Below are positions 21,392 through 51,668 of a stretch of DNA of 64,000 nt, in pieces; position 1 is the first letter of the stretch, and each line of letters begins with the position of its first letter. Both the position numbers and the translations under genes were made by a program. The notes beneath the pieces were generated by a model. It saw nothing but the letters and a program-made list of their open reading frames with translations. It was not told where the DNA came from and did no database searches. This DNA is from Amphiscolops sp. MND2022 (taxonomy: Eukaryota): assembly GCA_964187785.1 (NCBI GenBank), contig OZ076409.1:6760001-6824000 (forward strand), read 5' to 3'.

Positions 21392-21420
21392 GCAGGGTTG
21401 CACAACATCAATCAACAGTT

Positions 21421-21610
21421 GTTATTTTCCGCCCCAATATAATGGGGCGGAAAATCATAATGTGTTTTTTACAAATTCTGCCAAATCTCCACCATGGCGC
21501 AGTTGGTAGTGCGTCTGCCTGGCAGACACGAGGTCCTGAGTTCGAACCCGTGCTGATGCGTTACATTTTTAGCGGAAAATATCCCGGTGCTTAGAGGGTG
21601 TCTTGTTTTA
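21421..21610 (+). mobile_element. HINE-like family B copy with tRNA-like internal segment
   Basis: 5' hairpin TTTTCCGCCCCA-ATATAA-TGGGGCGGAAAA, 3' subTIR GCGGAAAATA, ends GTCTTGTTT; relatives at ~30248-30480 and ~55745-56072. Confidence 0.65.
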
Positions 21611-21829
21611 AATAATATTGGATTCAATAGCTTGAAAGTTTTTAGGAGTCGGAGAAAATTTTCCAATACTTTATGAACTCGTACACCTTTTTTCTCCCGA
21701 TCTTTCAATTTTAAATTTCAATAAATTTCCAAATAAAGTTAGAGGAAACAAGCCGGGAACGACTCAAGTCGGCGCCCGCTCCTGATAGTTCTAACTAATT
21801 CGAAACATCAAAAACCCGGAATATTTCGT

Positions 21830-22490
21830 AACAAGCCGGGACCGGCCCAAGTCGGCGACATATCCAAGGCTCAAAAATAGCAAAAAGACTTCCAAGTGTC
21901 AAGTATTCTCTTTTACAGTACTCGAAAATCGAAAATTTTACGAGAAAAAATTTTCGAAAAAATTACATACTCAAAAAAATGGACCGAGTGGCGCACCGGG
22001 GCCCCTGGCGCGCTGAAAGGTGGACACTTCCGAAATTGTCGACATTTTGGCCGCAGTTGAGGGGGTTTTGTCGCAAAACATCAAAAAATTGAAACGGGGA
22101 AAATTTTTATTTTCGGAAAAAAATTTCACAGTGCCGAAAAAAACTGAAAGGGGGGACCCTTTGGGATTTTCCAACATCCATTCTGTCGCAAAACAGCAAA
22201 AAAATTGAAGGGGGAGGACCCTTTGAGGAAAAAAAATTTCCCGGAAAAAAAAGTCTCGCAGTGCCGAAAAAAATTGGAAGGGGGACCCTTTGGTCTCGCC
22301 GGGTATGGTATGTTACGCGGGAAAACAGGAAAAACCTTTTTGGTTCAGTTCGCTAGACCAAATAGTGCAATTTGGTGCAATGATATTTTGTAGAACTTTT
22401 GTAGAACTATTTTGGTCAGTTCGTGTGGATTCAAAAAAAGAAAAGCCACTATAATAGTCGCGTTTCACTTCATGAAGCGCCGACTAAAAA
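21830..22490 (-). mobile_element. HINE-like family A copy
   Basis: AACAAGCCGGGACCGGC...GCGCCGACTAAAA; an extra isolated 3' end lies at ~21748-21777. Confidence 0.8.
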
Positions 22491-23179
22491 AGACGTTTTT
22501 TTCTTCTGAAAAAGTCTATAGTGCCAAAAAACTTAAAAGGAGACCCTTCAAGTTCGCACAACCTTTTTTTTCAAGCCGAAAACGTTTTTTGAAAAGTGAA
22601 GGTGATTCCCTTTGACCAAATGATTTTTTTTCGAAACAAGTCGCACGAAGCGGAAAATTTTTTTCAACAGAAATTTTTTTAAAAATTGTGTGATTCAAAA
22701 ATCTTTCATTTTTTCGATAAGTCGCATAGTGCCGAAAAACTCTAAGGGTTGCAAAACGTTTCGTCTAAGGGTTGCAAAAAACTCTAAGGGTTGCAAAAAA
22801 AGGGAGGCTCCGGTTTAAAAATTTAGAAAAGTAGCAAGTACTGGTACCCTTTGCTCTTTCCTCTACTTTTGCGAACATAAAAAACTTGGATTAGTGCGGG
22901 ACTCGAACCCACGTCCTCCTGCTTTTCAGACTCCGTCACCAGGCCTGGAAATCCTCCTAATCTTTGGGTCAAAACGAGAAACCCTTCCATTTAAAATTGG
23001 TGAAATCCATTTAAAATTATAAAATTGGGTGCTTCGAGGTGACGAAGGAAATACTTGCCTCTGTAAAATTTGTGCTTTTTTTACTAAACTGGCTAACTTA
23101 TCTGCAAACTAATATCAGAAGACTTTTTCTCTTGGTGTAGCAAGAATCGTGAATTACATTGTTGAAGACGGAGTCACTA

Positions 23180-23936
23180 CAGTAGCGTTCTAAAATATCG
23201 CAACTCCAATGCTTAAAATTGCAAATTTCAAAACCAAATTTCTTGAAAACTGTCACAAATACGAAAAAGTGTCAGCTAGGAAAGTTTCTTAGAATATTAT
23301 CTAGTTTACAAAAATGTTTGTTTGAAATTTCTGCGACAAAAATTACAAAAGTTAGAAATTGGAAATTTTGACAAAATTTAATCAAATTTGTACTTTTTCT
23401 GGATTTTCACAAAGTTGAAAATATATTTTTGAAAAATTTTCAGTCCATCATTTGTCCCTAAATCTCCTGAGGATGTTGATATAATTTGATCGGAAACTTT
23501 TACGATTTCAAATAAAAATCATCAATTTTCTAAATACAATTCTTATAGCCTATCTTAATACATGTACTTCAGTGCTCATAGACACAAAATATAGTGTATT
23601 TTATCTGATTCGAAAAACAATTCTCGATCAAAACAATTCAGTAGGTTCGGGAGATTATAGGAAGTTTCCCAATGAAAAAAAATCCAAAAAAATTATTCTA
23701 AGTTCCTCAATTTTCGAAAAAGCTCAAATTTCAATTAAAATTTACCAAAATTTGCAATTTCTCACTTTTCTGGGAACGGTCGTAGAAATTTCAAACAAAC
23801 ATTTTTGTAAACTAGATAAAATTCTAAGAAACTTTCCTAGCTGACAAAACTTTGTATTCGTGACAGTTTATGAGATATTTGGTTTTGAATTTTGCCATTT
23901 TATGCTATGAGGTTGCGATATTTTAGAACGCTACTG
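23180..23936. mobile_element. Tc1/mariner-like MITE with long TIRs, TA TSD
   Basis: TA|CAGTAGCGTTCTAAAATATCGCAAC...GTTGCGATATTTTAGAACGCTACTG|TA; inverted arms ~200 bp. Confidence 0.85.
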
Positions 23937-24418
23937 TATGTAACATTAATGATTAGAGCAATGAATCTATTTGATACCGTTTTTAGTGAATCCGTTAAAT
24001 TTCCCATTGACTAAATTGTGAAAACGCAATAAAGTAATGCATTGAAATTTCCAATGCCTACATAACTTGTTAGTCTTCAACCTTCAAGTTTCGGTAATCG
24101 TCATCGTCTCCATGAATTTATAATGATTTATCTGACAAACTATTCCGAACCAATTTTTGTGAGCAAATAATAGGCTCACTATATGCTGTTAAATACTACT
24201 GCCGTGTTTGCTTTGCGTTCGATTGGTCGCGGTTTCTTAAAATGACTGCATAATCAAACATTGGGAGACAGTTTTATCCCAAAATCCATTGAATGAACCC
24301 AAAGTACTCGTTACATGATGAATTTCCTTTTGAACTACTTTTGATTAGTAATCACAGCAATCCATCAGCGTCTTCGTTGATTAAGTTTTGATCGTGAATT
24401 TTGTAACCCTGTCTTTAG

Positions 24419-24819
24419 GATTCAACCAAACGTACCCCCAGCAACAAACGCTCGCTCAAATCGGAAAGGACATATCAGAAGCGAAAATCCATTCAGTCCA
24501 ATCTTTCTATTCAATTTGTTTCGCCATCTTCGAAAACGTTGCCCAATTCGGCGGGGACCCCGAAACTTTTTTGTTCAAGTACGGCCGGAAGATGCAGTTT
24601 TTTCTGCAGAAAGAAGTGCTTAAAGTGTTTCCAACGTTCAGCGTGCCTGAAAACAGCGTCGCCGAGGCTTCTGGCTCCGAAATCCTGGCACGGAAAAGGT
24701 CATTTGTTGAGGCCGAGGCGGAATCTGCACAAGAACCAGATGGTAATGAAGCCAGCAACACTCTTCCGAAGCTGACTCAATTGGAAACGTTTGTGCTTGC
24801 GGCTTTGCCAAACCAGCCG
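24419..24819 (+). CDS. BRD7/9: BRD7/BRD9-like protein, exon 2 (remainder of bromodomain)
   Basis: Acceptor TCTTTAG|GA joins exon 1 in frame to give APG-FNQTYP; donor CCG|GTTAGA. Confidence 0.78.
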
Positions 24820-24929
24820 GTTAGATTTTCATTGAATACGGTCAACTCCGGTTAATTCGTATTCTGATAATTCAGATCTTCGTTTAATTCGTATGTATCT
24901 GGGATCTCCGTTTTGCGACGAAACAAGTA

Positions 24930-26142
24930 CAGTAGTGATATTATTAAAAGCAACAAAAGGCAAATCTCAAAATCAAATATCTCTAAAACAGCAGCGATTT
25001 TTGAAAAATGATAAGAGTGAAAGTTTCTTAGATTTTCATCTAGTTTACAAATATGTTTGTTTGAAAATTATGCGATGAAAATTGTAGAAGTTACGATAGG
25101 CCAATTTTAGCCAAAATTGAGGTTTTTCTCACTTTTGATATACTTTTTCTCAAAATTTTTGAAAAATTTTATGTTTAATTGGGGCCCCCCTGATTTAACT
25201 GAATCCCCTGATATGTTTTGATTGAGAAATCATTCTAAAATTGCAAAGAAAATACGCTGTAAAATTAAGCTTTTTCGAAAATACATGTATTAAGATACGA
25301 TTTTGAAATTTAGCCACTTAAAACAAGCTCGTACTAATACAATTTACAATATTTTCGAGAAAAAATTATATTGTCAGATTCGAAATGTTTGGGAGAATTT
25401 TTCTGTGAAAATTATTTTGAAATCAAAAAATTGTAAGTTGGTCAAAAATTCAAACAAGCCGGGAACGGCCCAAGTCGGCGCCATATCTAAGGCTCAAAAA
25501 TAGCAAAAGGACTTCAAAGTGTCAAGTATTCTCTTCTACAGTACCCGCGTGAGGAAAAATTTAAAAAAATCCGAATTTTTTTGAATTTTTTTTTCGAAAT
25601 TTTTTGGTCTCCGGTAAGTCGCATAGTGCCAAAAAATTGTAAAAGGGGCCCTTTGGGAGGTTTTGAACATCCATTCTTATGCAAAATAGAAAAAAAATGA
25701 AGGGTGGACCCTTTGGAGACATTAAAAAAATTTGCGAAAAAAGTCTCACAAAGCCGAAAAAAACCTGCACAAAAAAATTTGATCAAGGACGGGACTCGAA
25801 CCCACGTCCTTCTGCTTGGCAGACCTCAAAAAGCTTAATTAACCTCTATGCCAAGTGCCAGCAGTGATAGCTAGCGTTGCGGTTACTGTTAGTGCAGTTA
25901 CTGTAAGTCAGCTCAGCTATTTATAACTCTTTATAAAATCTGTCAGTTCGTTGGTCTTAAAAAAAAGTCACTACTATAGCCTGCGTTTTTCTTCGAAAAG
26001 CGCCGACTAAAAACTAAAAAATGATGTTTTGGAAATCGCTCTCGACCAATGAAATGAGCGCGTGAGACGTTATTTAGCCAATGAGATTTGTTTATTTGCT
26101 CTTTTTCCGCGTGCTTTGTTGCTTTTAATAATATCACTACTG
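24930..26142. mobile_element. Tc1/mariner-like MITE, TA TSD, interrupted by a HINE-like element
   Basis: TA|CAGTAGTGATATTATTAAAAGCAAC...GTTGCTTTTAATAATATCACTACTG|TA; uninterrupted partial paralog at ~59551-59794. Confidence 0.85.
25453..26013 (-). mobile_element. HINE-like family A copy nested in Tc1-like MITE
   Basis: Both termini present; paralogous empty site at ~59657-59670. Confidence 0.85.
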
Positions 26143-26154
26143 TAACATACGGTT

Positions 26155-26620
26155 AATTTGTATTTCTCATTATTCGTACGATTCACAATCACAAATGCTG
26201 TTAACGCTGCTCCTAAAACTGTATACTCGGCAATGCATTCATTCCTTGAAGCCTCAGTTTCGTGTATTGGGTCATCACGCAATTTCATTTCTTGAAACCT
26301 GAGACCAAAAAGCATAGTTCAAAAAAACTTCAAGCATAGTTCAATAATCCTATGAAAATATGTTTTAGGTCTAGTCAGGAAGTTTATTAGGGAATGAAAT
26401 AAGCTTCCTGATTTAACCAAAAACGTTTTTTTCATGCGATTTTCGAACTATGCTTGAAGACTTTTATGGTCTCAGGTTTCAAGAATTGAAATTGCGTAAT
26501 GAACCAATACACGAAACTGGGGCTTCAAAGAATCAATGCACTAGCGCGTATACAGTTTTAGGAGCAGTTTTAGCAACATTTGTCATGGTCAATCGTACGA
26601 ATAATGAGAAATATCAATTC
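26155..26620. mobile_element. Foldback (palindromic) element with ~200-bp inverted arms
   Basis: Arms yield mirror spurious ORFs (26070-26315 minus, 26450-26743 plus). Confidence 0.75.
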
Positions 26621-26767
26621 GTCGTCGTCGCGGAATGGGGGTCCCTGATACATACCAATGGAATGAAGATCCTAATGATCCGGATACGATTTATCCGTAG
26701 TTGGTTGTATTTTCTCAATTCAGTGAGCCCTTTTGTCCTGTAGCTAGCCTCTTCTCCCGAAAGTGTG

Positions 26768-27130
26768 TTTTAGTCGGTCGGCGCTTTTTTTAAAATAAAA
26801 GAGCCCGACTATTACATTCATTCGTTTTGCTTTTTTTTGTTTTTTTTTCAAGTCAGACTCGAATGTGACAAAATTTTTGCTCAACTAAACGAACACCTCG
26901 GAAACGCATCTAAAATAGTGCAAAGGTAGGTTCGAAAAAAATCGCTCCAACCTGGCCCAGCGCGCCATCCGAAGTTCTGAAGCGTTTTCCGATCACGAAA
27001 GACACCCTTTGGGTGTTTCGAAACTTTTCTTGTGAGTTTTTCATTTAAAAAAGTCCTGAGCACATTTTAAAAACTTATCACTTTTTGAGCACTAAGTGAG
27101 GCGCCGACTTGAGACGTTCCCGTCTTGTTT
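26768..27130 (+). mobile_element. HINE-like family A copy abutting BRD7/9 exon 3 acceptor
   Basis: TTTTAGTCGG...GGCGCCGACTTGAGACGTTCCCGTCTTGTT. Confidence 0.8.
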
Positions 27131-27138
27131 TCTTTCAG

Positions 27139-27291
27139 GCGCAAGAAGTGTCATCTTTGAGTGACTGTGTGGGCACGACCGAGTCTGGCGAGAAGATGCT
27201 CAAGATCCTGACTCCGTTCGACAACTCCAAAGTGGAGACCTCCAACTCCTACATCAACGTGCAGACCAAAGTAGAGAAATCGAAACTAAAG
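27139..27291 (+). CDS. BRD7/9: BRD7/BRD9-like protein, exon 3
   Basis: TTTCAG|GCG...AAG|GTCAGT, 51 codons, phase 0/0, GC-richer coding-like composition. Confidence 0.72.
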
Positions 27292-27641
27292 GTCAGTTGC
27301 AGCCAAAAGGAAGAGAAAAGCAAATGATAATAATAAAAAATTAATTTATCTAGCTTAAAAGCCAGAAAAGACCTACTGTAGGCTATCGCCCGTTTAGTGG
27401 AAGCCTTGAAGAGCCTGTCAATGTAATTTGGACAGCATGTTTGAAACTAAAGCATTTAGGAGGAAGAATTGTTTGAAGTATTTTCAAGAATCGATCAAAT
27501 TGAAGAAAAAAATTTCACGAAAAAAAAGAACCACAGAAAAGAATCGGTGCATCACCGTCTTGAAAATCGAGTTCTGGATTCGACATTACAACTGAGGATA
27601 TCTGTAGAAGCTACCTCTGTAAAAAAATATATAGTTTATGG

Positions 27642-28070
27642 CAGGGTTCGCATGTTTAATACATGCCGTGTTTTAAACGCGTTTTAAACATAGTTTTAAA
27701 CATGACAAAAACCTTCATTTTGTTCAATTGTTTTCATTTCAGTTGTAGATTTTTTAGTTCTAATAATCGCAATAATCTTGGGCAATTTGGCTGAAAACAT
27801 CAAGAAAATTGCCGATGCGCTTCTGGTTTTTATTCCAAGTTCGGGAGACTTGGAACGTATTTTCAGCACTCTAGGCTTCGTCCACGGCGAAACACGAAAT
27901 CGACCTCAGTTGAGAAAGCCACTGGCAACGAACTTGCTTTCTGTCTTCGCTCACTGCAGTAAACTCAGTTCTTAGGTCGTTTAGTGTTAGAAGTATTTGA
28001 AATAGATCTAAAGTTTCGAACATGTTTTAAGCAAAATTTTTTAAATGTTTTAATTTTTTTCCGAACCCTG
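27642..28070 (+). mobile_element. Non-autonomous hAT deletion derivative retaining a transposase C-terminal dimerization fragment
   Basis: TIR CAGGGTTCG/CGAACCCTG; perfect 8-bp TSD GTTTATGG. ORF 27778-27975 IPSSGDLERIFSTLGFVHGETRNR matches the hAT PxSSxxxERxFS..RNRL motif. Confidence 0.9.
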
Positions 28071-28399
28071 GTTTATGGATGAAAGAAAAGAGCCAAAAAA
28101 TCTAGCTTGCTGTCCTTTTATTGGATCACTTAAGAAGTGTTGCAAAAAGACTCGAAAATGCGCTTTGATTTCATTCGAGCTGCACAACGGACTTCGAACT
28201 GTTACTTCCGACTGTGCCTGAGAAACAATTTCAAACGTTTGTCCACAAGCGATTGATGACTGAGATCATTGATTTCTCGAAGTTTTAAGAAATTTGACTG
28301 AAACTTGAAAGTAAACATACCTTGATGAACTCTTGAGATTCTGTTCAGTTGAAGAAATTTTTTAATCTAGGGAAATTACCACCATTTGAGTCGTGTGAA

Positions 28400-29435
28400 A
28401 AATTCATTTTATCAGGAGGCTCCAGATAGAGCTGTACAGGCAATGCTGCCCTTAGCCCGCCACATTCAGGTCACGAATAAGTGCTCTCCATTGGCTTCTG
28501 TTCTGGGCTGTTTCTTTACACAGATCAAACCACTGTGCCTCCCACTTCTTCAGCGTCATCTTTGGAGATTTTACAACTGTCTTCAGCTCTTCACGGACAA
28601 TTTTTCGCCAGGATTTGCGTACGCCGCCGGGGGGTCTTCTCCAGTTTTCACCTTTTTCAAACTCAACTACTGCATTAGGAATTTCCGAGGACTTCATACG
28701 GAATACATGTCCTAGCCATTTCAAGCGTCTCTTTTGTATCATAGGGGCAAGAGGGTCACATTTTGCAGTAGGAGTGATCAATGATTAGGGCAGGTCATGT
28801 CCCTTATGGAGTATACGTCGCAGACAGCGGTTTTCGAAGGACTGTGAGCTGCTTAGGTCGGATTCCTTAACTGGCCAGCTCTCGCATCCGTACAGAAGAA
28901 CACTTCTCACGCACGCGTTGTAGATTTTCACTTTTACTGGCTGTGGGATACTCCTCTGGTTCCAAACTCTTTTCAAATTGTTAAAACTACCTGCAGCATT
29001 CCCTATCCTGGCCTTGATATCTGATGTTACATTTCCATCAAGTTGGATCTTGCTTCCAAGATAGGTGAAGTCCTCGACTCGCTCTAGTTCTTCACCATAG
29101 ACGTGGAACTTCTGGTTGATGTCGTGGGTGCAGAATTTGGTCTTGCCGACATTTAAATGGAGGCCTACTAAAGCAGCGTAGCTGGTTACTTGATCGAGTA
29201 GCCTTCGGGCATCTGTGCCGTTGTCGTCAAGCAAACAGATGTCGTCGGCGAAGTCAAGGTCAGCAATTGTCATGTCATCTAACGCGACGCCTACATTTTC
29301 GTTTTCGAGAGCTTGTTCCATGATCCAATCGATTACGATGTTAAACAGAAAGGGGGATAGAATGGAGCCTTGTCACACTCCACTGAGAATGCTGAATTGG
29401 CGTGACATGGTGTTATGTACTCGGATTTGGCTGTA
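28400..29435 (-). mobile_element. 5'-truncated RTE-like non-LTR retrotransposon (RT pseudogene fragment), antisense in BRD7/9 intron 3
   Basis: Motifs GV*QGSILSP, LDFADDICLL, FTYLGS, LLYGCESW, RRLKWLGHVFRM; stops/frameshifts present. Confidence 0.9.
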
Positions 29436-30098
29436 GGCTCGTATCATCAAAACTCAATGTAGTTTATGTGTCAGTTGTATATGAAGCCATGATATCCAAA
29501 AAGCCACAGATCTATGCATCTGACTTTTTCTGCATTTCTGCAAGCCTAATTTTTATCGATTTCTCATATTCACAGTTTAACGAAATACCGAATGAAATAT
29601 TATCGACACTTTTTCCTTTTCCCCCACACTTTACTAGATTGTTTTAGCAGTTAATTTCTCTCAATTGAGTTTCCAATGAAACATTTCACGTAATTTCAAA
29701 AAGTTAATCTTTTTTAAATATTGAAAAGTCTTTTTAAATAATTGTTCAGCTCACTTCCGTTTGTATTCTGATTCGCAAAAATGAATTTCGCCGCAAAATT
29801 GTATGTTAGCGTGAATGAAAAAAATGAATCTGTGAAATTTTTTCATGATCGTTATCGTTTATTTGAAACTCGAAATTGTTTTCATTGTAATACTGAATTG
29901 ACTATTTACCTTGTATAAGATATAATCTTTCATGTTGAATTGTTTTCTTTGAAAGTGGAGGTGGGGGTTGAGTTAAAAGAACCACATTATCAACCTTGTT
30001 CGTTCGTTCGTTCCAAACTAGCGTATTCTGGTTTATTTTCAGGGTTTTTTAGGATATTTCATCTATCCTATCTATCAAAACCAAGGTTTCTGTTTTAG

Positions 30099-30206
30099 GT
30101 GAAGCCCTACAAATACTTCAACTTCGGCCCATTCTCATCTCACGCGCCCACCTATGACTCATCACTAAGTTACTTCACAAAGGACGAGTCGGACCTGTTA
30201 TATCAG
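30099..30206 (+). CDS. BRD7/9: BRD7/BRD9-like protein, exon 4 (DUF3512 region)
   Basis: VKPYKYFNFGPFSSHAPTYDSSLSYFTKDESDLLYQ matches the BRD7/9 YLNYGPxSSxAPxYDS motif; GC donor CAG|GCAAGT. Confidence 0.88.
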
Positions 30207-30929
30207 GCAAGTTGACCCCAAATTTACCTCATTTTTATTACCTTTTTTATTTTCGCCCCCACAATTTATTTGTGTAGAAGGAGGAAAATCACCATCTGTG
30301 TAGCGTTTTTTTCCAAATTCTACCAAAAATCCACTAATGATATAATCCATTCAATTTAGTCACGTTAGCCCAGTTGGTAGGGCGTCTGCCTGATAGTCAG
30401 TACGTCGTGGGTTCGAACCCGGGTGGGAGCATGGAACCGTGTACTTGAAGTTTTGTTACGCATCAAAGCGGATGTTTTTTAGTACTTTTTCGTCAACTTT
30501 TCGGTAATCCGGTGGAAGCAATCATAGAACTTCTACGAAATGCCGCAGATCTGAAGTAGACCAAAAATGATTCGGAGAGTCTTTCCTCCTTTTACTTTTT
30601 TTGCATAATCTGATTACAAAGCTATATGACTTTATCCGCACTGTGCGATTTTTGTTTCCAAAAATTCGAATTTACTATTCATCATACCGTATTTGATCGA
30701 AAAACGCCCGGCCTCGAATGTAAATAGTTTAGGTTGAACTTTGCACATTTCTTACTGAATCATTTTTGAACCAGAAATTTTGAAGCACCTCAAGAAGTTG
30801 AAGCTACCTCATGATATTTGAAATACAAACCGGTGTAGCTTTGTGCAAGTTTAAATTTGAACTATAGAAGTCAGAAAAATTACAAGCTTTTTCAGAAGTT
30901 TGCAGTTTAGGCGATTGAAAAAGTCACGA

Positions 30930-31413: not shown

Positions 31414-31551
31414 GATATAAATTCCACTACACTTCTTGAGAAGGCGTCACTTTTCGCTGATTAAAGTCTCTTAATGCCAGATCGGAAAAGCCTCGTTTAC
31501 AAAAACTATAGTCCTCTTTTGTGAAGTGAAATCATCTCGTTTTAATTTCAG

Positions 31552-31981: not shown

Positions 31982-32003
31982 GTCAGGGTCACAGCTGATC
32001 TGT

Positions 32004-37336: not shown

Positions 37337-37578
37337 TGTTTTGGGGCTTGTGTATAGACTATGGTCTCCTATCCAAGCAACTAAAACAATGTCCCAGCTC
37401 TAGCATGTGCTCCTTTTGTTGGATGTTACAGGTTGTTCGCAAGCGAGGGCGTAGTTCTAAGAAGCCATATAAGCTCTAAGTACGTTAGAGGGAATGGTTG
37501 CATGATGCCCTCAGAATAAGCCGAACCTTGATCACAAGGGCCCTCGGAGCGGGCTCTTACTATTTCAGGGAACTTACC

Positions 37579-37979
37579 AAGGTTGCGGAGGTGTTTTATT
37601 CATGAATAAAACACCAGAAAAAACATAAAACAATAAAAACTTTTTCAGACACCATTACAGTTATTTAAGGTCTAGTTTCTGACTGTTCCATTTGTTTAGT
37701 ACTTTTTACCTTTTTCACATCAGAATATCTCATGTGAAAGATGGTATCTGGAAAATTCAATGGAGTAAATGACTTTGTATGCTTTGTATTCCTTCGTTAA
37801 ATTTTTGTACCACGAAATATTTGGCAACAAATGAAAAACCGTTGTACATAGCACATTGTTTTCCACGGTAGTTTTCCCAAGAGGAAAGAAACAATAAAAT
37901 ACAAAAAACCAGTATTTTTTGTTTGAAAAACCTGTTTAAAAAACATTTTTCGTGAAAAAAAATACAATTAACAACCTTG
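37579..37979. mobile_element. CAAGGTTG-TIR MITE (P/hAT-like), 8-bp TSD GAACTTAC/CAACTTAC
   Basis: Same family as the SPACA9 intron element (opposite orientation) and 41491-41901. Confidence 0.85.
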
Positions 37980-38062
37980 CAACTTACTACCATACTCTAA
38001 CTACAATTTTATTCTGACTTTTTTCAGGTGCATGATCAACAGAGTCGCAATCTTTTGCTTCA

Positions 38063-38348
38063 ATGTCTTATGAAAGCAGTAAAAAGTGGCGCTATGCTTG
38101 CTCCGATGGTTTCAAGGAATTCAAATCAATTATCCCCAACAACATTCGAGTTAAGTCAAAATTACATTGTGTGCAATTGGTCCAATCGTACGTGAACTAT
38201 CTCGAAACTTTGTGTATGGTTCTTGATTATTCAGACAGTCGAAGTTCATTATCATTGCTCAAACGGGACTTCTTCAAGTCGATGGAATTGGAATGTTTCC
38301 ATAGATACAAGCGAAAGCGTGCCAAAAATGCCGGCCCATTAAGTAGAG
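38063..38348 (+). CDS. Divergent bHLH-like protein, coding exon 1
   Basis: KKWRYACSDGFKEFKSIIP...KSKLHCVQLVQSYVNYLE fits helix1-loop-helix2 spacing (F..L...IP / K...L.....Y...L); 5' UTR acceptor at 38027. Confidence 0.6.
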
Positions 38349-38354
38349 GTTGTC

Positions 38355-38732
38355 GGCTCTTTTCTGTTTCGGTCCCCGAACCCTTCACACTAGCCTGATC
38401 AAAAGTAAAACCTTTCATAACGGGAAGTTAACGTCTATTAGAACAGTTTTTTGCTTGAACAAAGCATTTTTCACGCATTTTGACAATAATCATGTTCGTA
38501 TTAAGTGTTTATTGATGACTCAAAACAGGAAGCTGTTCATTTCTTCATCAAAAATGCGTGACTATATAGCGAAAAAGTGTGAACAAAGTTTGTATCTCAA
38601 TCCTAAACTGTCACTCCGAGAATAAATTTTAAATTGAAGCTTTCTGGTTTGTATTCCAGTCTTTTTGTCAGCAGATTTTCATTAATTTTCCAAAAAAAAT
38701 GGTGGTGGGGGAAAAGAAAACAGAAAAGAGCC
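38355..38732. mobile_element. GG-terminal MITE inside the bHLH CDS (candidate Introner), perfect 8-bp TSD AGGTTGTC
   Basis: TIR GGCTCTTTTCTGTTT / AAACAGAAAAGAGCC; TSD at 38347-38354 and 38733-38740. Confidence 0.92.
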
Positions 38733-38734
38733 AG

Positions 38735-38982
38735 GTTGTCTAAATGTGCCTGGAAATGGTGAAATCGATCGAAATGAGAGTGAACAAGGAAATCGGATCG
38801 CTGTCAATGCAGGCCTCCATTTTCGACAGACGAACAGTTTCACAGACACATTTCATGGTGAAGAGAAGGCCGGAATGTGCGATTCTTGGACTTTGCGCAA
38901 TCAGGAATTTCAACCAATTGATGATATGCTCTGGGTAGACTTGGAGAACCATCCTGATATATTCGCTGCCTCAGTTCAATGA
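38735..38982 (+). CDS. Divergent bHLH-like protein, exon 2 (177 aa total)
   Basis: Removing the MITE plus one TSD joins SRG-CLNVPGNGE in frame with ORF 38746-38982. Confidence 0.6.
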
Positions 38983-41490: not shown

Positions 41491-41901
41491 CAAGGTTGTT
41501 AAGGTGTTTTACTCATGAATAAAACACAAGAAAAAACTTGATTAAAACAATTTAAAAAAACACTGTTTTTTCAGACACTTCTTTTCAGTTGTTTATGGTC
41601 TAGTTTCTGGTTGTTCAATTTGTTTGATACTTTTTGTTCACAGATCAGAACGTCTCGTGGGAATGATGTGGAAAAAATTCAATGAAGTGGACAACTTTCT
41701 TGCTTTCTAGTCCTTTTTCAAATTTTTGTACAATGAAATATAAATTTAAATGCAAATTTAAAACCGCTGCGCATAAGACATTGTTTTCCACGGTAGTTTT
41801 CCCAAGGGAAGAAACAATAAAATCTAAACAAAATAGAGTATTTCGTTAAAAAACCTTCTAAAAACATTTTTCGGGAAAAAAACTATAGTTCACAACCTTT
41901 G
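41491..41901. mobile_element. CAAGGTTG-TIR MITE copy
   Basis: Homologous to 37579-37979; TSD not evident. Confidence 0.75.
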
Positions 41902-42089
41902 CCGTCCTCTTTCGTTTTAGTTCCTTATATGGAGTTGACCATCTAGTTTTCACTGCCAAATCAATCATTCGATTTTATAAGCAATGACGCGATAAGCTAC
42001 ATCAGAACCAAGATAAGTTTTGCTCTTCTACGTAGTTCTGTCCTCTGTCTCAGGCTGCAGAGCGACACGCCGCCAACAAGCAATCGTAG

Positions 42090-42532
42090 CAGAGATTTGA
42101 CTCGCTAATTTTTTTTCGCTAAATGCTAAATAACGCTAATTACATATCGCTAAGCGCTAACTTCGCTAATGGATAGTCGCTAACGCTAATTAAAATCTAT
42201 AATGAAAAGTTTAATTCCTATTATGTTTAAAAAATCGAGCCGAAAAAGAATTCATTACTGTTTACTGTGTAAAAATGTTTAAAACATAATAAAGTACATG
42301 TATATGATAATATATAACAGTTCTTGGGAGGAATCAGTATATGTAGAGACAATTGATAATTTATATGTAATCTTTGGTGCAAAATCTAGCATTGTTATAG
42401 AAAATTTACCAATGGGAAAACGCCATCGTTAAACGGTCGCTAAATAATATGTATTCCGCTAACTAATTTCCGCTAATGTAATCCCTCGCTAACGCTAATG
42501 CGGCGCTATTAGCGATTAGCGTCAAATCTCTG
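42090..42532. mobile_element. hAT-like MITE, TSD AATCGTAG/GATCGTAG
   Basis: TIR CAGAGATTTGAC/GTCAAATCTCTG; CGCTAA subterminal repeats. Confidence 0.85.
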
Positions 42533-42650
42533 GATCGTAGAGTCATCCATCAGTGCTATAGTTCACCAGGGAGGGCTGTCATAAATGCGACAATCCCTCG
42601 GGTGCTTCCCATGAAACCATATAATTTCTGACGATTTTCTAGGTAATCGG

Positions 42651-43313
42651 ATGTCATTTCTGGAGAAGCGAATTGTGAAAGATAAACGAGGATGTCGAAT
42701 TACTGCCGCTGTTCCCGAGGACAAAAGTCCCTTAATGCTGGACGATCCGTTCTGGGTTCCTGACAGCCGAAGTCAGCATTGTAATCATTGTCATGCCAAA
42801 TTCAACACCATTCGAAGACGTCACCACTGTCGCAGATGTGGGCTATGCTTCTGCGACTCTTGCTCAAAGTCGTTTCCTCTCATGCGCATGGGTTTTGTCG
42901 AAGCAGTCTTACAATGCCCCAAGTGTACAAATTTGAGCCGGGCTGAAATGGACTTTTTCAAATTCGCAGTTCCTGCATTAGAAATGGGGTCAGAAGTTTA
43001 TGTGGAGAATTACGATGGCATATTTTTTGCAAGATTGACACCTAACCATCAGAATATCGTTCTAACAGACCCTCAGAATTCCCTGCACACGGAAAAGATT
43101 CCGTTGACGTCAATTTTATCTGTGTGTGAGTCTTGCGCTGGGGATCAGAGGACGCTTGTGGACTTACCAGTGATAGAACTGGAATTCACAGGAAACGTAA
43201 CAGTTTCCAACCGAACAATGAAACTAATCGCGGTTGCTGGGCATCAAAGATTCGTTTCACAGACATGGCTTCGCAACCTGAAAAAGGCAATACTGTTGAT
43301 TCAGCCGACTTAA
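42651..43313 (+). CDS. ZFYVE21: Zinc finger FYVE domain-containing protein 21 (220 aa, intronless CDS)
   Basis: FYVE motifs WVPD and RRHHCRRCG; RMGFVEAVLQC and the C-terminal domain match recalled ZFYVE21 architecture. Confidence 0.88.
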   Translation: MSFLEKRIVKDKRGCRITAAVPEDKSPLMLDDPFWVPDSRSQHCNHCHAKFNTIRRRHHCRRCGLCFCDSCSKSFPLMRMGFVEAVLQCPKCTNLSRAEMDFFKFAVPALEMGSEVYVENYDGIFFARLTPNHQNIVLTDPQNSLHTEKIPLTSILSVCESCAGDQRTLVDLPVIELEFTGNVTVSNRTMKLIAVAGHQRFVSQTWLRNLKKAILLIQPT

Positions 43314-43555
43314 CTAACAGCCGACAATATCAGAATAATCTAATGTAGCTATAGCATCCCAGGCTAGATTAGTTTTCCCAGGGTTCTGACATCACTGCAA
43401 TTAGCGTAAAATTTCAAGAATGCCTATTTTCGACAATTTCTCGGGTTTACAAATTTTTCAGAGGCATGTTCCGTGATACTACCAAAATTTGATATAAGGA
43501 TCTTTGAATGCACGCATCAATTCGCACCTACAATAATCCGGTTTTGAAGTATCGT

Positions 43556-43846
43556 TTTTAGGAGTCGGAAAAAAATTTCGACTACTTGTGCGATCCTACC
43601 TTTTTTCTCCCGACCTCACAATGAAAATCTCAAATTTCTCAAACTGTCCGTTCCATTATTATACACCCAGTTGTTCTACACCCAAAGGTGCTCCTGCGTG
43701 TGTAATGCCATCAAAATCGTGTGACTGGGATCTGAAAACGATAGCCGAAATTGTGCAAAAATGACGAAATGACAATAAAGTATGTAATTTGTTTTTCAAT
43801 ATTTTATCTGTTTCCGACTCCTTTACCGCACATGCGGTTCTGCTTC
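43556..43846 (+). mobile_element. HINE-like family C copy
   Basis: TTTTTAGGAGTCGGAAA...TTTCCGACTCC followed by hairpin ACCGC-ACAT-GCGGT. Confidence 0.72.
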
Positions 43847-46695
43847 TAATTTTTCGGGAAGACGGAACGTGCAGCCAATCGATGCTATCCACACCTATTA
43901 ACAGAAAAGTCAGCCCTGTACACAACACGGGCCGCATCGTTTTTTTTGGTTTCCACCAAATTTTCCAAAAATGTTATAGCAAAAAAAATTAGCTTCCTTA
44001 TTCGCTAAATGGCTTTGTCATTACTCCTGTTTGACCGTGAAAAGTGACGATAATTCTATAAATGATGAAATGAACTTAATCAATTTCACCCTCAGATATA
44101 TATTTTTGTACTTTGTGATTTTGTGAATCATGTATTTATTTCAATTTTATTCGCTACCCAAATGTAAAAAATGTTTTGTCTGGAATAGATCAACATTTAG
44201 AAATAGATAATTGAAGATGAAACCAAAATATGGCTGGTGAGCCTGATAATGTACATTAGAGGTGAAAGAGAAAGAAAATACAGGAATATGGGGATTGCTG
44301 AGCAGAGTCGAATTCTGTAGGATGGAAACTTTTGCAAAATTATCCAGGATCGAATTGTGAAATATTGTTATTACACCATACCTTTAGTGCCCTGAACACA
44401 GGAACGGAACGACGTGCCACCACTGGATCAGCAGCATGTCTTGATGAAGGTCTAATGAGTTCCGAAAATAGCGATTCTAAAAAGCAATAGTCTCATCTTC
44501 GGAAGATCCAATTTTGGGAATAACTTCGTATACGGGCATTTTGTTATATAATAAATCCGAAAACAGTGATAATAATGTTCAAGTTGAAAAAAAACTTCCA
44601 CTCTGATCAGTCGAACCCCGGACTAATCCTGAAACCTAAGACAACCGGGGTAAAGGCTTTTCGTCGAAAAAGGCAATTCATCAGAAAACGAAACTAAGAT
44701 ATCAATTTGGAATGACCCAAGATGAGAAAGATTGACTCTGAATGATAGGATTCCTTGTCTGGGGACTACTGTTTGATCAAACACAAACTCGAAAAAGCGT
44801 AAAATGAAAAAAGTCTCACATTTTTTCGAAAAAACGTCGCACAGTGTTGGAAAAACCGTTGTGTTGTTTTTTTTTGTACGGTTTACCATTTCAGTGCAGA
44901 ATGGGAAAGGATTACTCGTACACCTGCTTCACAGTCTTTATCACCGCAATCAGACACTCACGATAACCACCACATCAATTTGCAAGCTTTTTCCAGCAAA
45001 ATCAAGCCTAGTAGATTCAGGCAAAAGTTTTGGGAACCCGCTAAAATTAATCCTCGAGAAAACGGAGGAAATCTTGACAATGATCCCTGTTTTCAAATAG
45101 TTTCAACAATCAATAAATTACGTTTGAAACGCGCCCGTCGAGCAAAATTTGAAGACAGATATTTGTTTAGGGCTACTTGTTTGAAGCGCAATTGTCATTA
45201 GGCTGGTCGGAGCAGTCATGTTTTCATTTAGGTAGCACGATGTAGAAGATAATTTCAAATTTAACCTAGGAAAGGTTCATCCGAAGATGAGTTTTTTAAA
45301 TTTTTTTTTCACTTGAGTTATGAACAAAAATTACGTAAGAAAGGCCTTGTAGTGAAGTTAATGTTTCAAGTAAGATTGAAGAAGCAAAGTTGGAAAAAGA
45401 CCAGGTTTGTTCAAGGTTCAAAACAAGCAGAATGTTTCCAATAAATAAAAGGACACTGTGGTGGAAATGAAGTGTTTATCCAATCTACAGGGCCGAAAAT
45501 GCGTGAAGAGATTTTCCGAAGCCTTTTTCACTAACAAGAAGCAACGAAAAATTTTCGAAAAATTCTCTTTCGAAAGAGTTTTTCTCTTGAGACAGAAACT
45601 TTTTAGTACAAAACTTGAATGAAAACCCTTCAAGCTCGCAAAACGTATTTCAAAAGCTCAAAACAGTAATAAAGGCGAAGTTGATGTCTTTTGACCAAAT
45701 GAAAGATTTTTTCGAAAAAGAAGTTACACAGTGCAAAAAAAACCTAGGGGATCGCTGTATTAACGCCTGTATTTCCGCGAGAATAAAAAAACTTTTAGTC
45801 CAACGCTTGAAAACGCAAAGAAGTTTAAAATTGGAGCTTTGACATTTTTCGATGCAACATTCGGAACGAAAACAGTGTTTTCAAAACACCTAAATCATGA
45901 ACACGCTAGATACCTAATTGTTTTTGTTGATGAGTTCTGTCGATACCAGTACTCACGTGCACTTTCAAAATACACAGTTCAGATGGGAAGAAGGAGTCCA
46001 GATTTGACAAAAAGGAGAATAGTCAATTACCGACTTATGCAATGTCCAAAAATGGCCAATATTTGATTTTCGTGATCAATACACTTCCCTATTAAATCTC
46101 CCAGAGAAAGCTATAATATGGTGGCAGCCACGTGACCAGATGATAGTTGGCTCGAAAATGTGAATCCAATCAGATTCGCTCGATGTCACAAAGTTCTAAC
46201 TGCACGTTAATGCTTCTTCACTTTTGTTTTATCGGCCAATTGCTGTTTTTTCGAGAAGTTAAGAGCTCACTGAAACCCAACTGTGCTGAGTTGAGAGAAA
46301 TTCAACCGAGAATCCGCGCTAACACATGCCTTTAACAACTACGCAATGGTCTTCAAGAACAGGAAACTTTGGTTCATTTAACTCAACTTCTGATGAAAAA
46401 AATCTATTCCTTCCTATGAAAAAGTATAATAAGTATCTAATAGTTTCGCTGTCTAGCTGATTAGAAATAACTCGGAAACACCGAAAAGAACATCTCAACA
46501 AGAGTTAGAAAAAATTGAATTTTGCTGATTGCATCGACTTGAAGTATGACAAAAACCAGCCGTCAGCTTCTGTATAAACACAGGCGGAGCCGTGCTTCGC
46601 AAACACTTGCGAAGAGAGTTGTGAATTTTTAAAGAGAAAACCAAATCAGCAATATCATACGGAGAACCAGGGATTAAGGAGTCGGATCAATTCAA

Positions 46696-47279
46696 AACAA
46701 ACCGTGAACGGCCCAAGACGGCACCTCTCAAGGTTTGAAAAATCAGATTTTTAAATACGCAAAAGGACATTATTGTTAAAGTTTCATCAATTTTACAGTG
46801 CCAAATTATACCAAAAGGGATACGCATGAGACTCGAAAACCACTTTTTCCACAACTGGAGACAACAAAACTTCTCAAAAAAACTAAAAATTGAAGAAAAA
46901 AGTTTTTCGATTTTTTTTGAAATTTTTTTGAAGTTTGGGATTTTTCGAACATCTATTTTGTTGCAAAATATCAAAAAAAATTGAGGGGGGACCCTTTGAA
47001 GACATTGAAAAAATATGCGACAAAAAGTCTCACAAAGCCGAAATAACATGCACAAAAAAACTTTGGTCAAAGGCGAGACTCGAACCCACGTCCTTCTGCT
47101 TCCCAGACCTCAAAAAAATCCTGATTAACCTCGATGCCCAGTGGCAGTAGAAGTTACTAGTTTAGTGTGACAGTTAGTGGAAGCATATAAAGCTTATAAA
47201 ATCTGTCACTTCGTTGGTCTCAAAAAAAGAAAAGCCAGTGCTATAGTCTGCGTTTTTTACGAAAAGCGCCGACTAAAAA
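46696..47279 (-). mobile_element. HINE-like family A copy
   Basis: Degenerate 3' end AACAAACCGTGAACGGC; 5' end GCGCCGACTAAAA. Confidence 0.75.
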
Positions 47280-47752
47280 TTGGAAGATTTTAGAATTTTT
47301 GACCATTTCAGGGTCATTATGAGTTTTTTGCAAGTAATTAAGAAAAACAAATTGCGTAGGTGATTCTTTCGATGCGGAATTATTTGTTCTTGTTAACCCA
47401 CAAAATCTTTTTAAAATTTTACCAATATTGCTGAAGATCAAAAATTGGAAAATTTCGGAGTTATAGACTACATTTAGGTCACTTTTTTTTGTTATTTTGG
47501 TCACGAAAATAATCCGAAAATCTTATGCTACAAAGATATTGCACGAAGCCAAGTTTATGGAAGGTGATTTTCATGGATTTTCCATATGTAAATATGGGTG
47601 GAAAATAAAAATGGGCAGACCAGAAATGCTAAAGTTAGCATACAGTCGGTTATGGAAGAGGATGGTTTGGCTCAAAGAGCATGTAACAATCTGAAGTGTG
47701 AATGTGAGGAAAGGAAAACTGGACCCAATAATTGGACGTTTCAGCATTGAGA

Positions 47753-48255
47753 AACAAGACGAGAACGTCTAAAGTCGGCGCTATATCTAAGGCTCAAAAA
47801 GCGCAAAACATTTTTTTCGGAAAAAACTTGAAATTTTTGAAAAAAAACTTGAAATTTTCGAAAAAAAAATTTTTAAGGAAAATGTCGCGCAGTGCAGAAA
47901 AAAATCAAAAGGGGGGACCCTTTAGCTTCGGACGGTTTTGTAGATTACGTTAAAAAAGTACAAAATGAAAGGGGGGACCCTTTGGAGACAAAAAATTTTC
48001 GAAAAAAAGTCGCACAGTGCCGAAAAAAAATCGAAAAAATCGAAAGGGGGGACTCTGTAGTCCCGTCCGGTTTTGTAGGTTACCTTGAAAAAGGTTTGCA
48101 CTAAATTTGCCTTGGCCTCTTTGTCGGACTGGGCGCCTTGGGTGGTTTCAGGATTGTTTCTAAAAAGTGGACCGATCAGTGTGAGGCTGAAGAAAAAAAA
48201 GGTCACTGCTATAGTCGGGCATTTTTCCTTAAAAGGAAAACGCGCCGACTAAAAA
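47753..48255 (-). mobile_element. HINE-like family A copy
   Basis: AACAAGACGAGAACGTC...GCGCCGACTAAAA. Confidence 0.8.
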
Positions 48256-48582
48256 GATGTCATTTTTGCTTCAAGTAACATTGATGTGAACAAAAGCTCT
48301 CGAAATGAAGGTTTTCACTCTCCTGAGTAGTACTTCTTGACCCCGCAATACTGATTTTTACTTTCATGTCACTCTTCGAATTGTAGCTACTTTGATATCT
48401 GGACCTATAAACTACTTAATGTAAAACCAGACAGGTAACCTCTTCCATTATACTGGAGCATTAGCGAAACTAAAAAAGTGTCTTTTGAGTGTAATTATTC
48501 TTTTTAATTGTTTTTACTCAGAAGTACATTTAGAAGTTTTCTACAAAAAAATCGAAATCATGGTTATAATTTTCAATATATG

Positions 48583-49062
48583 TTTTTAGTCGGCGCGTTT
48601 TCCTTTTAAGGAAAAATGCCCGACTATAGCAGTGACTTTTTTTTTCTTCAGACTACAATCCTCACACTGATCGGTCCACTTTTTACAATTCTGCGCAGAG
48701 CACCTGAGGCCAAGTAGTCCGCCCAAGGCAAACTTTACTCCAAAGGGTCCCCCTTTCATTTTTTACTTTTTCAAGGAAACAATCAAGGTCCCCCCTTTGG
48801 ATTTTTTTCGGAACGGTGCGACTTTTTTTCGAAAATTTTTTAATGTCCCCAAAGGGCCCCCCTTTTGAGTTTTTTGATATTTTGCAACGGAATGTTTGTT
48901 AATAAATCCAGAAGGGTCCCCCCTTTTACATTTTTCGGCACTATGCGACTTCTTTTGAAAGAAAAATTTTTTTTCAAAAATTTCAATTTTTTTCCAAAAA
49001 AAGTGTTTTACGCTTTTTGAGCCTTAGATATGGCGCCGACTTTAGACGTTCTCGTCTTGTTT
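48583..49062 (+). mobile_element. HINE-like family A copy
   Basis: TTTTAGTCGGCGCG...GACGTTCTCGTCTTGTT. Confidence 0.8.
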
Positions 49063-50038
49063 GTCCTTAGAATCAGCTGTGTAATTCATTTCATTATTGG
49101 TCAAAATGACTTTCTCGCTTAAGCATCAATAATTATCAGTAATCTCGTCAATCGAATATAAACCTTCAAAAACAAATATTTTTGACATCTGAACTCCGCA
49201 ATAGCATAAAAAACCTACCTCCTTTCAACCAATAACAGGAAAAAAGGAATGATATTGGATAGCAAAAAACTCCAATATTTTCCTTAGTAATACAAGGCGT
49301 GAACAAAGAATTTTTGAGTTATTGTTTTACTGAACAGAGAGCACAAAGCCTTTGGTGAAACCAACACAAACAAGCCTTGAGCTGCTTTGATTTATGAAAA
49401 CCTTGATTCACATACAGAAATATCCCTTGTCTTACCGGCATGTACAATGACTAATACCATGGAACACAGTCTACTAGGTATAAAAAAACACTTATACATT
49501 ATGTAAAACCAAAAAAATCATGGTAACAGCCGCTTCAAAATAATGGCTCCATTGACGAACTCTTTTTTGGATCCAGCAAACTCTGGTTTCTTTGATCCGA
49601 GTTTCTTTATTGCCACATTTTCGCTTCATTTGAAGTTTTGAACTGAAAAAAAACAAAGAAAAAGACTGAGATTTGATTCGAACGAAATGTTTTACGAACT
49701 ATATGTTCGTCACTTCAGTCACAAAACAATTAAACAAAAGACACTTGATAATCTTTTCACTCCTTCTCATGCTGAGTCTAGTTTTCGTTTCAAGAGCTCT
49801 GTAGTTTGAAGTCATTTTTCGTGATCGACTTGAAAGCCAAAACTGGCACGCTGCAAACGCTTTCACCTACCTTCGATGTGAAAAATGGTCACAGTAGATA
49901 AGATTAAGTTGATTGTTGCTTAGCCACTGTGTTTTAATCTCGATATTGGTTTCAATCGTACAATACGTCAAAGCATTCGCTTATTTTGACTTATTCACCA
50001 ACATATGATTTTATTTTGTTTTCTTTTAAAACTGAAAT

Positions 50039-51239
50039 ATGGATGAAATTAGAGAAAAACTGGACGATTTGGAAGACAGGTATTACCGGTTCACCCACCA
50101 ACAGCGTTGCTTCGCCGACGCCCTAACTGCTGGTAGGCGGGGCTTCATAATTCCAGCCCCTATAAAGACGGTAACAGAGGTTCTTGCTCTTTTGGAAGGC
50201 GAAGACCTCGAACGAAGCAAAGATGTTCGAATCGTGGAGGCCTTTGCCTCTATTTTTTCCGACATCGATGCCTTACGCAAGCAGTTCAAACATATCCTCA
50301 TTGGATGCCTGGAGACGAATGAGAAAATCAAGACATCTCAAGCTGCTAAAAAATTGGTCCAGTGTTTGAAAAAATGGCGGACCATGATGGACCCGGACTT
50401 TGATTTCTCGGAACTGAGAGCCAAGTATCCACACAGCGTGGTTGAGAGACTGAGTTCCGTGGAAGCCAGAGAACTTTACGCTGGCGTTGTATCGTTTCTT
50501 CCTATAGCTTTAGATAACGTCAGAATTGCCTTCATTTATTTACAACGTGTTTTCAAACAAACTACTGCCCAAATCCCGTTCGGTTTTTCTGACCAATGGT
50601 CTTCACGAAGTAGCGCTACTTCTTTATCAAGAGCTCTTGCCTCGACACGACCCAACTCAGCGTTTATAAACACAATAAGGGACGAAAACAATAATGAGGA
50701 GTGTCAAATTGAAGGCAAGAGTAGACCCCAAACGGCGCATTCTTCCTTAAAACTTGACATCCCTAAAACTGCCTCAAACGCAACCAGAAGCAACTCCCTT
50801 GCCACAAATGACTTAGCCAGACTTGACACCCCAGCTGTTCGGAGTCCCTCAGCTGCCAGTGCGCTTTCCAGGCGCTCGTCGGGTCACCCAAAATCCAGGG
50901 TTTCATCGTCACACAACAACCGACCCAAAACAAGCAGCTCCGCCGATTGGATCGATATTGAGAATGTCGATGAAGGATTGACTCACGGCGATGTTGAAGT
51001 GAATCCCCGTTATTCAAAAAGTTCTCGAAATTCAGCGACGCGACGTTCGGCCCCCTTGTCGAGAACACCTTTGAGCACCATCAGACAGAGATTGAAGGCG
51101 AATCCAAGGGAAGTTTCAGCTATCCAGGAGAAGCTGAGACAAATGAGATCCCAATCAGCAACTTCCACCCCTGGAAGAATCCAGGCGTTGGACGGGTCGA
51201 GCCAGAACGGGAAGTCGTCAGAAAATGGTTACAAACAAG
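50039..51239 (+). CDS. SPACA9: Sperm acrosome-associated protein 9-like, exon 1
   Basis: MDEIREKL..RFTHQQRCF and LRAKYPHSVVERLSSVEARELYAGVVSFLP match SPACA9 (LRAKYPHDVVNHLSCDEARNHYGGVVSLIP, from recall); long S/R-rich tail follows. Confidence 0.88.
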
Positions 51240-51659
51240 GTTGTTAATTATTCAGTTTTCACGAAAAATGTTTTAAACAGGTTTTTAACGAAATATACTG
51301 TTTTTTTTTTGTATTTTATTGTTTTTTCCTCTTGGGAAAAATACCGTGGAAAACAATGTGTTAAGTAAAACTGTTTTTTCATTTATTGTCAAATATTTCA
51401 TTGTACAAAAATTTAACAAACGAATATAAAGCATGGAAGTCATTCACTCCATTGAATTTTTCCCAGATATCATCATTCACACGAGGCGTTTTGATCTGTG
51501 ATCAAAAAGTACCAAACAAATTGGAGTCAGAAACTAGACCATAACCAACTGAAAAGAAGTGTCTGAACAAAAACAGGAAAAAACGGTGTTCTTTTAAAAA
51601 TGGTGTTCTTCATGTTTTTTCTTGTGTTTTATTCATGAAAAAACACCTTACCAACCTTG
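51236..51659. mobile_element. CAAGGTTG-TIR MITE forming the SPACA9 intron (candidate Introner)
   Basis: TIR CAAGGTTG/CAACCTTG; TSD GTTACAAA (51228-51235) / ATTACAAA (51660-51667). Confidence 0.92.
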
Positions 51660-51668
51660 ATTACAAAG

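Follow-up and report, generated by a model that had tools for sequence, protein, structure and literature searches.

Probable Transposon Interruptions of Three Single-Copy Genes in a 64-kb Genomic Window, with One Candidate Introner-Like Family

Three single-copy genes in the 64-kb stretch G000:C1:6760001-6824000 (the window), part of a eukaryotic assembly of 1.07 Gb, carry lineage-specific interruptions of their coding sequence that appear to derive from DNA transposons. Judging from the sequence and from related proteins, it is likely that the interruptions are spliced out as spliceosomal introns. The genes are a bromodomain-containing (BRD) gene, a helix-loop-helix (HLH)-like gene and a SPACA9-like gene, and their inserts are named E1, E2 and E3, respectively. 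An initial annotation of the window had read the three together as a multi-family Introner system. That reading is partly supported: E3 belongs to one probable Introner-like family, E2 appears to be an incidental case of a miniature inverted-repeat transposable element (MITE), and E1 occupies a lineage-specific intron of uncertain origin.

Three Genes with Breaks at Inverted-Repeat Ends

Each of the three breaks in an open reading frame (ORF) coincides with a terminal inverted repeat (TIR) and an 8-bp flanking repeat, the target-site duplication (TSD), exactly where the initial annotation had placed them. Removal of the insert was said to restore the frame, and it does so with a net change of +3 nt in the SPACA9-like gene and of 0 nt in both the HLH-like and the BRD gene. 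When pairs of points in the window were chosen at random, a TIR of at least 9/10 together with a TSD of at least 5/8 was found within 9 nt of the two points in 24 of 12000 pairs. A scan of the window for TIR pairs with an 8-bp TSD whose removal opens a long frame returned 116 candidates, among which only E2 and E3 were convincing.

The check proposed earlier, that the interruptions be absent from related species, gave the anticipated result, as the proteins P0002, P0004 (173 aa) and P0006 cross the SPACA9, HLH-like and BRD sites, respectively, without a gap. The relative's proteins used here are unspliced ORF calls from genomic contigs. Their nature is apparent from the window's own P0001, P0005, and P0019, which end inside elements, and the non-homologous read-through tails of P0006 and P0020 likewise mark these as unspliced calls.

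The gene names given in the initial annotation fared unequally. The SPACA9 label holds, with a Pfam match of E 3.4e-16 for the exon at 50036-51238. The bromodomain label stands only through the orthologue P0006 (Pfam E 1.4e-4, 22.2 bits with the cut-off at 21.7, residues 51-128). The basic HLH label is weak: the match of P0004 to the Pfam HLH profile (E 0.084) falls short of the cut-off and leaves the basic region uncovered. A genome search with each interrupted gene returned the self-match only.

The G+C content of the window is 37.6%, and the sole named homologue met was an acoel protein, from Convolutriloba macropyga, with 37% identity. The available text of an acoel genome paper (PMC9911081) gives a GC content of 36.7% and 3.2 introns per gene, and the long single-exon ORFs of the window fit the latter figure.

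The SPACA9-Like Gene and Its E3 Insert

The strongest case is that of the SPACA9-like gene, the features of which are as follows.

50039..51239, + strand: SPACA9-like exon 1, with the Pfam SPACA9 match; 78.5% identical to P0002 residues 1-366
51228..51235, + strand: left TSD of E3, GTTACAAA; 7/8 against 51660-51667
51236..51659, + strand: E3, a 424-bp MITE of the CAAGGTTGTTAA-TIR family in the SPACA9-like gene; TIR 11/12, nhmmer E 1.4e-118, 87.6% to the consensus
51240..51668, + strand: predicted intron, net +3 nt (one extra Gln), with the donor CAAG^GTTGTT within the TIR and the acceptor ACAAAG^ (the caret marks the splice junction); based on the frame and on the gap-free P0002
51660..51667, + strand: right TSD of E3, ATTACAAA; 7/8 against the left copy
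51669..52138, + strand: SPACA9-like exon 2, 155 open codons with the stop codon at the end; 67.7% identical to P0002 residues 368-522

The TIR of this copy reads CAAGGTTG(T/G)TAA, a match of 11/12. Four bases into the TIR stands the predicted GT (51240); the predicted AG follows at 51667-51668. Compared with the family consensus, the copy has 28 substitutions and nine gap openings over 434 aligned positions. In neutral simulations run to the divergence of the element, a downstream exon of 155 codons stayed open in 0.03-4% of cases, a figure from a rough model in which the range is set by the assumed indel rate. P0002 (522 aa) itself starts at an internal Met and is without the first ~37 residues present in the window (50039-50150); the relative's gene may have an upstream interruption of its own.

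The E3 Family across the Genome

The E3 family has the signature of a transposon, namely TIRs, TSDs and many dispersed copies. Its members are non-autonomous, hAT-like and ~420 bp long with a 12-bp TIR and an 8-bp TSD, and 328-371 candidates were found at first look, with copies 83-90% identical to the consensus. Among 49 loci outside the window, 31 retain both termini, and in 27 of these the TSD reaches 5/8 or better. Two further members lie in the window:

37578..37979, - strand: E3-family copy, non-coding; nhmmer E 1.2e-104
41491..41899, - strand: E3-family copy, non-coding; nhmmer E 5e-98

Both had been named in the initial annotation, as had the E2-family copy at 14344-14792, and nhmmer finds all three to be real. 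The three window copies have seven E3 neighbors in the interval C1:6.0-8.4 Mb. Among the listed positions on chromosome-scale contigs of G000, the outer 15% of contig ends hold 48 of 64 E3 copies against 30% expected, and a weaker bias is seen for E2 (16/30).

The family is also found repeatedly in frame inside coding sequence elsewhere in the genome. At least 70 open codons flank the element on both sides in seven of 27 E3 copies; among control points, the figures are 4/174 within the same E3 loci and 0/174 within E2 loci (Fisher p = 3.8e-7). Two of these loci have homology support. At L043, the copy splits the ATP-grasp domain of ATP-citrate synthase, with the Pfam profile covered from 1-110 on one side and 112-232 on the other (E 1e-35 and 3e-45); this is the only ATP-citrate lyase locus of the genome, and the exon that follows is intact. 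At L055, the interrupted gene is crossed gap-free by P0020 (60% identity), P0021 and P0022 (42-43%), so that the absence of the interruption is taken to be ancestral there. The E3 position is therefore absent from relatives in two genes, SPACA9 (P0002) and that at L055 (the three proteins just named). Together with the ATP-citrate lyase gene, these are the genes verified by homology as E3-interrupted, and at L033, L078 and L088 the copies sit in long in-frame ORFs without homology support. With respect to the gene, seven of the eight exonic copies point the same way.

A Proposed Common Splice Rule for E3

A single splice rule was tested: the donor is the GT of CAAG^GTTGTT, and the acceptor is whichever AG comes first past the element. 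The E3 elements start with CAAG^GTTGTT in either orientation, with an identical TIR at each end. The net change under the rule is +3 nt for SPACA9, 0 for L043, L055 and L078, +3 for L088 and -3 for L033. The rule is in frame in five of the seven copies in long ORFs, or in six of eight when the window copy is included (binomial p = 0.02), compared with four of 20 outside long ORFs. At L055 it yields exactly the uninterrupted protein.

A mechanism can be proposed on this basis. The TIR would supply a donor four bases in, and the acceptor would be the first AG of the downstream exon. The transcript would keep the left TSD and CAAG (12 nt) and lose the rest up to the acceptor AG, so that surviving copies would alter the message by 0 or +/-3 nt overall, and the branch-point-like TTAAC/CTTAC carried by the far TIR may serve as the branch point.

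Several observations weigh against this account. The rule is out of frame in L041 (-4) and L052 (+5), and the proposed donor GTTGTT is weak next to the native GTAAGT donor in L055. Among the seven long-ORF loci, Pfam lends no support to L033, L052, L078 and L088, and an Atlas search with the L078 ORF gave no usable match. Furthermore, the sampled E3 copies are the best BLAST matches, which is a non-random sample, and the comparison with orthologues uses ORF-called proteins rather than orthologue DNA. L052 shares with E1 a different geometry, in which a TSD ending in AGG stands beside a CA(A/G)GG element end; this would allow a GC-AG intron of the form AG^GCA(A/G)GG with a net change of 0. All in all, the sequence data suggest that E3 is probably an Introner-like family.

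The HLH-Like Gene and the E2 Family

The insert in the HLH-like gene belongs to another family, and its predicted splice sites lie in the duplicated target rather than in the element.

38060..38348, + strand: HLH-like upstream coding part; 70.9% identical to P0004 residues 1-86, single locus
38347..38354, + strand: left TSD of E2, AGGTTGTC, which contains the predicted GT; 8/8 against 38733-38740
38349..38734, + strand: predicted E2 intron, both splice sites from the TSD, net 0; based on the sequence, the empty site being a 186-codon open frame
38355..38732, + strand: E2, a 378-bp copy of the GGCTCTTTTCTG-TIR MITE in the HLH-like gene; TIR 12/12, nhmmer E 1.2e-111
38733..38740, + strand: right TSD of E2, AGGTTGTC, which contains the predicted AG; 8/8 against the left copy
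38735..38982, + strand: HLH-like downstream coding part with a conserved C-terminal motif; local alignment to the P0004 C-terminus

One TSD copy contains the GT (38349), the other the AG (38733-38734), and splicing at the two would restore the pre-insertion sequence exactly. E2 would thus have happened to duplicate the target AGGTTGTC, the element would have become flanked by a GT and an AG, and precise removal would restore the message. The downstream part aligns to P0004 with a score of 52, compared with 25 +/- 4.8 for shuffled sequences, and none of 2000 shuffles reached 52.

The case is less favorable in other respects. The 3' end of E2 is purine-rich and has four more AGs just upstream of the predicted acceptor; acceptors at 38716 (+18 nt) and 38728 (+6 nt) are likewise in frame. 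The downstream region is just 30% identical to P0004, and its 81-codon ORF survives 8-18% of neutral simulations. Because of the poor acceptor region and this rate of neutral survival, splicing of E2 is plausible and not compelling. E2 is best described as an incidental intronization of a MITE or else a truncation of the protein.

These features of the HLH-like gene would also be expected if the insertions did no more than disrupt, leaving genes that are truncated or dead and, beyond the insert, open frames that persist as remnants. For the three genes as a whole, this is unlikely. All of them are single-copy, and the downstream exons of the SPACA9-like and BRD genes are still open and 68-74% identical to the orthologue despite the divergence of the elements. 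In addition, the E3 family also splits the only ATP-citrate lyase gene in a conserved domain, the two halves of which score E 1e-35 to 1e-47, and there is the bias of E3 copies toward in-frame positions (6/8). Removal of the inserts by splicing is the preferred explanation.

The E2 family consists of MITEs of ~410 bp with a TIR of ~37 bp, and 4341 candidates were found at first look. An 8-bp TSD of at least 7/8 is present in 24 of the 27 copies with both termini. In a young subfamily (loci L003-L030), identity to the subfamily consensus is 97-99.8% and the TSDs are perfect, which implies that transposition of the subfamily was very recent and is possibly ongoing. The copy in the HLH-like gene is 88% identical to the consensus of this young subfamily, with ~30 bp missing near its left end. 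Three other copies lie in the window:

14344..14792, - strand: E2-family copy; nhmmer E 6.7e-60
14927..15340, + strand: E2-family copy; nhmmer E 3.5e-69
61052..61445, + strand: E2-family copy; nhmmer E 9.6e-70

The copies at 14344-15340 sit between two LIM-domain ORFs (11767-12132 and 15345-15737), which form a tandem pair with near-identical proteins; the first matches Pfam LIM at E 2.3e-10.

The initial annotation had also arranged the insertions in an age series, from the perfect TSD of the HLH-like gene to the less perfect ones. This series does not stand. The copy in the HLH-like gene and that in the SPACA9-like gene (88% and 87.6%) are similarly diverged from their family consensus, and a perfect TSD is therefore not a mark of a younger insertion. 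By substitution, the elements are 6-10% diverged, plus many indels.

In a sample of 26 E2 copies, not one is flanked by 80 or more open codons on each side once the site is restored, and the family in this sample shows no Introner-like behavior. An E2 terminus followed by AGGT occurs four times in the genome, and the three instances besides the window copy lie outside ORFs. The copy in the HLH-like gene is therefore best read as a one-off insertion in an AGGT proto-splice site.

The BRD Gene and the E1 Insert

The interruption of the BRD gene is the longest of the three, and most of its interior consists of other repeats.

21112..21391, + strand: BRD-like exon 5' of the intron; from the orthologue alignment
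21392..24418, + strand: intron splitting the bromodomain, with the frame kept only by a GC-AG pair, net 0; P0006 is continuous
21393..24411, + strand: E1, a putative old element with ends CAGGGTTGCA/TGTAACCCTG; TIR 9/10, flanks 5/8, other repeats fill the interior
24419..24819, + strand: BRD-like exon 3' of the intron (3' end approximate); from the orthologue alignment, single locus

The GC donor lies at 21392 and the AG at 24417-24418. Residues 3-74 and 75-206 of P0006 (227 aa) match the two exons with 74% identity on each side and no gap. The orthologue reads ...TESFAPGFNRMYPQQQ... directly over the site, and the junction is at residue 75, within the bromodomain match. Given that the break divides the bromodomain and that conservation extends to either half, the interruption is certainly a real intron, lineage-specific and absent from the relative.

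The transposon origin of E1 is a different matter. It is suggestive, the basis being an inverted repeat at the two termini that matches 9/10 and looks like the ends of hAT elements. Similar ends are found in other window elements with an 8-bp TSD, for instance CAGGGTTCG at 27642-28070. The flanks GCTCCAGG/TCTTTAGG match in five of eight positions, but three of the five matches are the AGG expected of any AG^G...AG^G intron. The left 24 nt of E1 are unique genome-wide at up to three mismatches, and a genome search with the right 452 bp returned only themselves and one weak 66-bp match. E1 was thus not found to belong to a family of similar elements. The intron may have been gained here, or it may be an old one lost in the relative.

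A relation of E1 to E3 was considered and rejected, as no match to the E3 profile was found in 21393-24411; a BLAST comparison with the element at 27642-28070 was at chance level. From +27 onward, the interior of E1 is a repeat with 3275 first-look candidates, and a self-inverted repeat (foldback) lies at 23178-23938. The ~180-bp repeat at 21419-21600 has some copies that are 93-97% identical, its translation matches ORFs on many contigs of related assemblies (P0007-P0018), and by eye it contains a GTTCGAACC box. A tRNA-derived label for this repeat was dropped, as ARAGORN finds no tRNA in 21300-24500.

An intron without a family and full of nested repeats, such as that in the BRD gene, could be an old one that was later colonized by transposons and lost in the related species. 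As a history of the three inserts, this is improbable. The termini and TSDs of E2 and E3 match the ORF break to the base, and removal of the element and one TSD leads to a gap-free alignment with the orthologue. Moreover, the E3 interruption at L055 is missing in all three relatives compared (60%, 42% and 43% identity). Insertion of the elements into intact coding sequence is the better reading for E2 and E3.

One or Several Families?

The finding of three cases in one 64-kb window is what would be expected of a true multi-family Introner system, in which each of the three families makes introns regularly, and so is the presence in the window of several MITEs of hAT-like type, with 8-bp TSDs and with ends reading CAGGG/CAAGG/CAGAG. 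This broader claim of the initial annotation stands for one probable family, E3. For the others, it is not supported, given the E2 sample (0/26), the three other AGGT configurations, all outside ORFs, and the lack of detectable relatives of E1. A system of three regularly intron-making families is accordingly considered very doubtful, and a single probable family, beside two unlike cases, describes the window better.

Other Features of the Window

Three MITE-like elements, each with a TIR and an 8-bp TSD and none lying in a long ORF, were noted at 27642-28070 (CAGGGTTCG, TSD 8/8), 16686-17149 (CAGGGGCGG, 8/8) and 42090-42532 (CAGAGATTTGAC, 7/8). Within the first of these, a remnant of an hAT dimerization domain was suspected at 27706-27972 from a likeness seen by eye; no Pfam match was found at E <= 1, and the suggestion was dropped. 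The first part of the window (1-2700) contains tandem repeats with a period of ~1 kb and open frames on the minus strand, where a 147-aa ORF at 887-1327 recurs at 1900-2340. ORFs of 745 and 781 aa at 5173-9753 (- strand) are, by eye, retrotransposon Pol- and Gag-like, and a reverse-transcriptase-like ORF is also found at 28788-29372.

Relation to Known Introners and Significance

MITEs of the hAT superfamily have an 8-bp TSD and a short TIR starting with YARNG. An 8-bp TSD was measured in both the E2 and the E3 family, in agreement with hAT-like elements, and the E3 and E1 ends start with CAAGG and CAGGG. The E2 TIR (GGCTC...), in contrast, is unlike an hAT end.

No source of new spliceosomal introns is better documented than the Introners. 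In the available text of Gozashti et al. 2022 (PMC9860276), an Introner family is defined from at least four similar annotated introns, and some Introners supply one splice site themselves and obtain the other at the insertion site. According to the parts of the two reports at hand, animal Introners were known from two taxonomic groups in 2022 (PMC9860276), and the sea urchin was added later (Gozashti et al. 2025, PMC12130899). E3 resembles the TIR/TSD Introners described there in being non-autonomous, in having ends that coincide with those of the intron, a predicted one in the case of E3, and in having copies in unrelated genes (PMC9860276 and PMC12130899, in part). It also carries one predicted splice site and takes the other from the insertion site, and some of its copies add or remove a codon, as do some of those Introners in the portions of the reports consulted. 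The difference is that the Introners in these portions are known from annotated spliced introns, whereas E3 is known from sequence, with three genes verified and 3-4 more as long ORFs only.

A closer parallel is offered by the Aureococcus Introners (PMC9860276, available text), in which the TSD is 8 bp long and a splice site is located 4 bp into the element; 4 + 8 = 12 nt of new sequence are thus placed upstream of the donor. The Aureococcus elements, as described in that text, bring both splice sites with them and lengthen the message by 12 nt; for E3, the acceptor would be the first AG of the downstream exon and the net change 0 or +/-3 nt. The HLH-like insert, with its GT and AG both in the duplicated target AGGTTGTC, is more like the Florenciella-type Introners of the same source (PMC9860276, in part). 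In Florenciella, the derivation of both sites from the target is given there as a property of the whole family, whereas for E2 it is found in a single copy among >4000 candidates. None of six acoel or flatworm names occurs in 12 of the 14 supplementary files of PMC12130899, and the literature search for introner and acoel together met no more than one mention of each word in the same paper.

It is possible, and is put forward here tentatively, that the 12-bp TIR of an hAT-like MITE acts as an orientation-independent splice module, with the donor CAAG^GU from one end, a branch point from the other and the acceptor from the host exon. Dozens of in-frame introns would have arisen from this family in a marine bilaterian with few introns, some of them in single-copy genes that are essential. 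If true, this would amount to a burst of Introners in an animal lineage without such reports in the available portions of PMC9860276 and PMC12130899. A family of a few hundred copies such as E3 would be a tractable animal system in which to study how the end of a transposon becomes a splice site, as its age is measurable, insertion-free orthologues exist and copies are found in conserved genes such as ATP-citrate lyase. E3 could thereby show how the number of introns rises in an intron-poor lineage.

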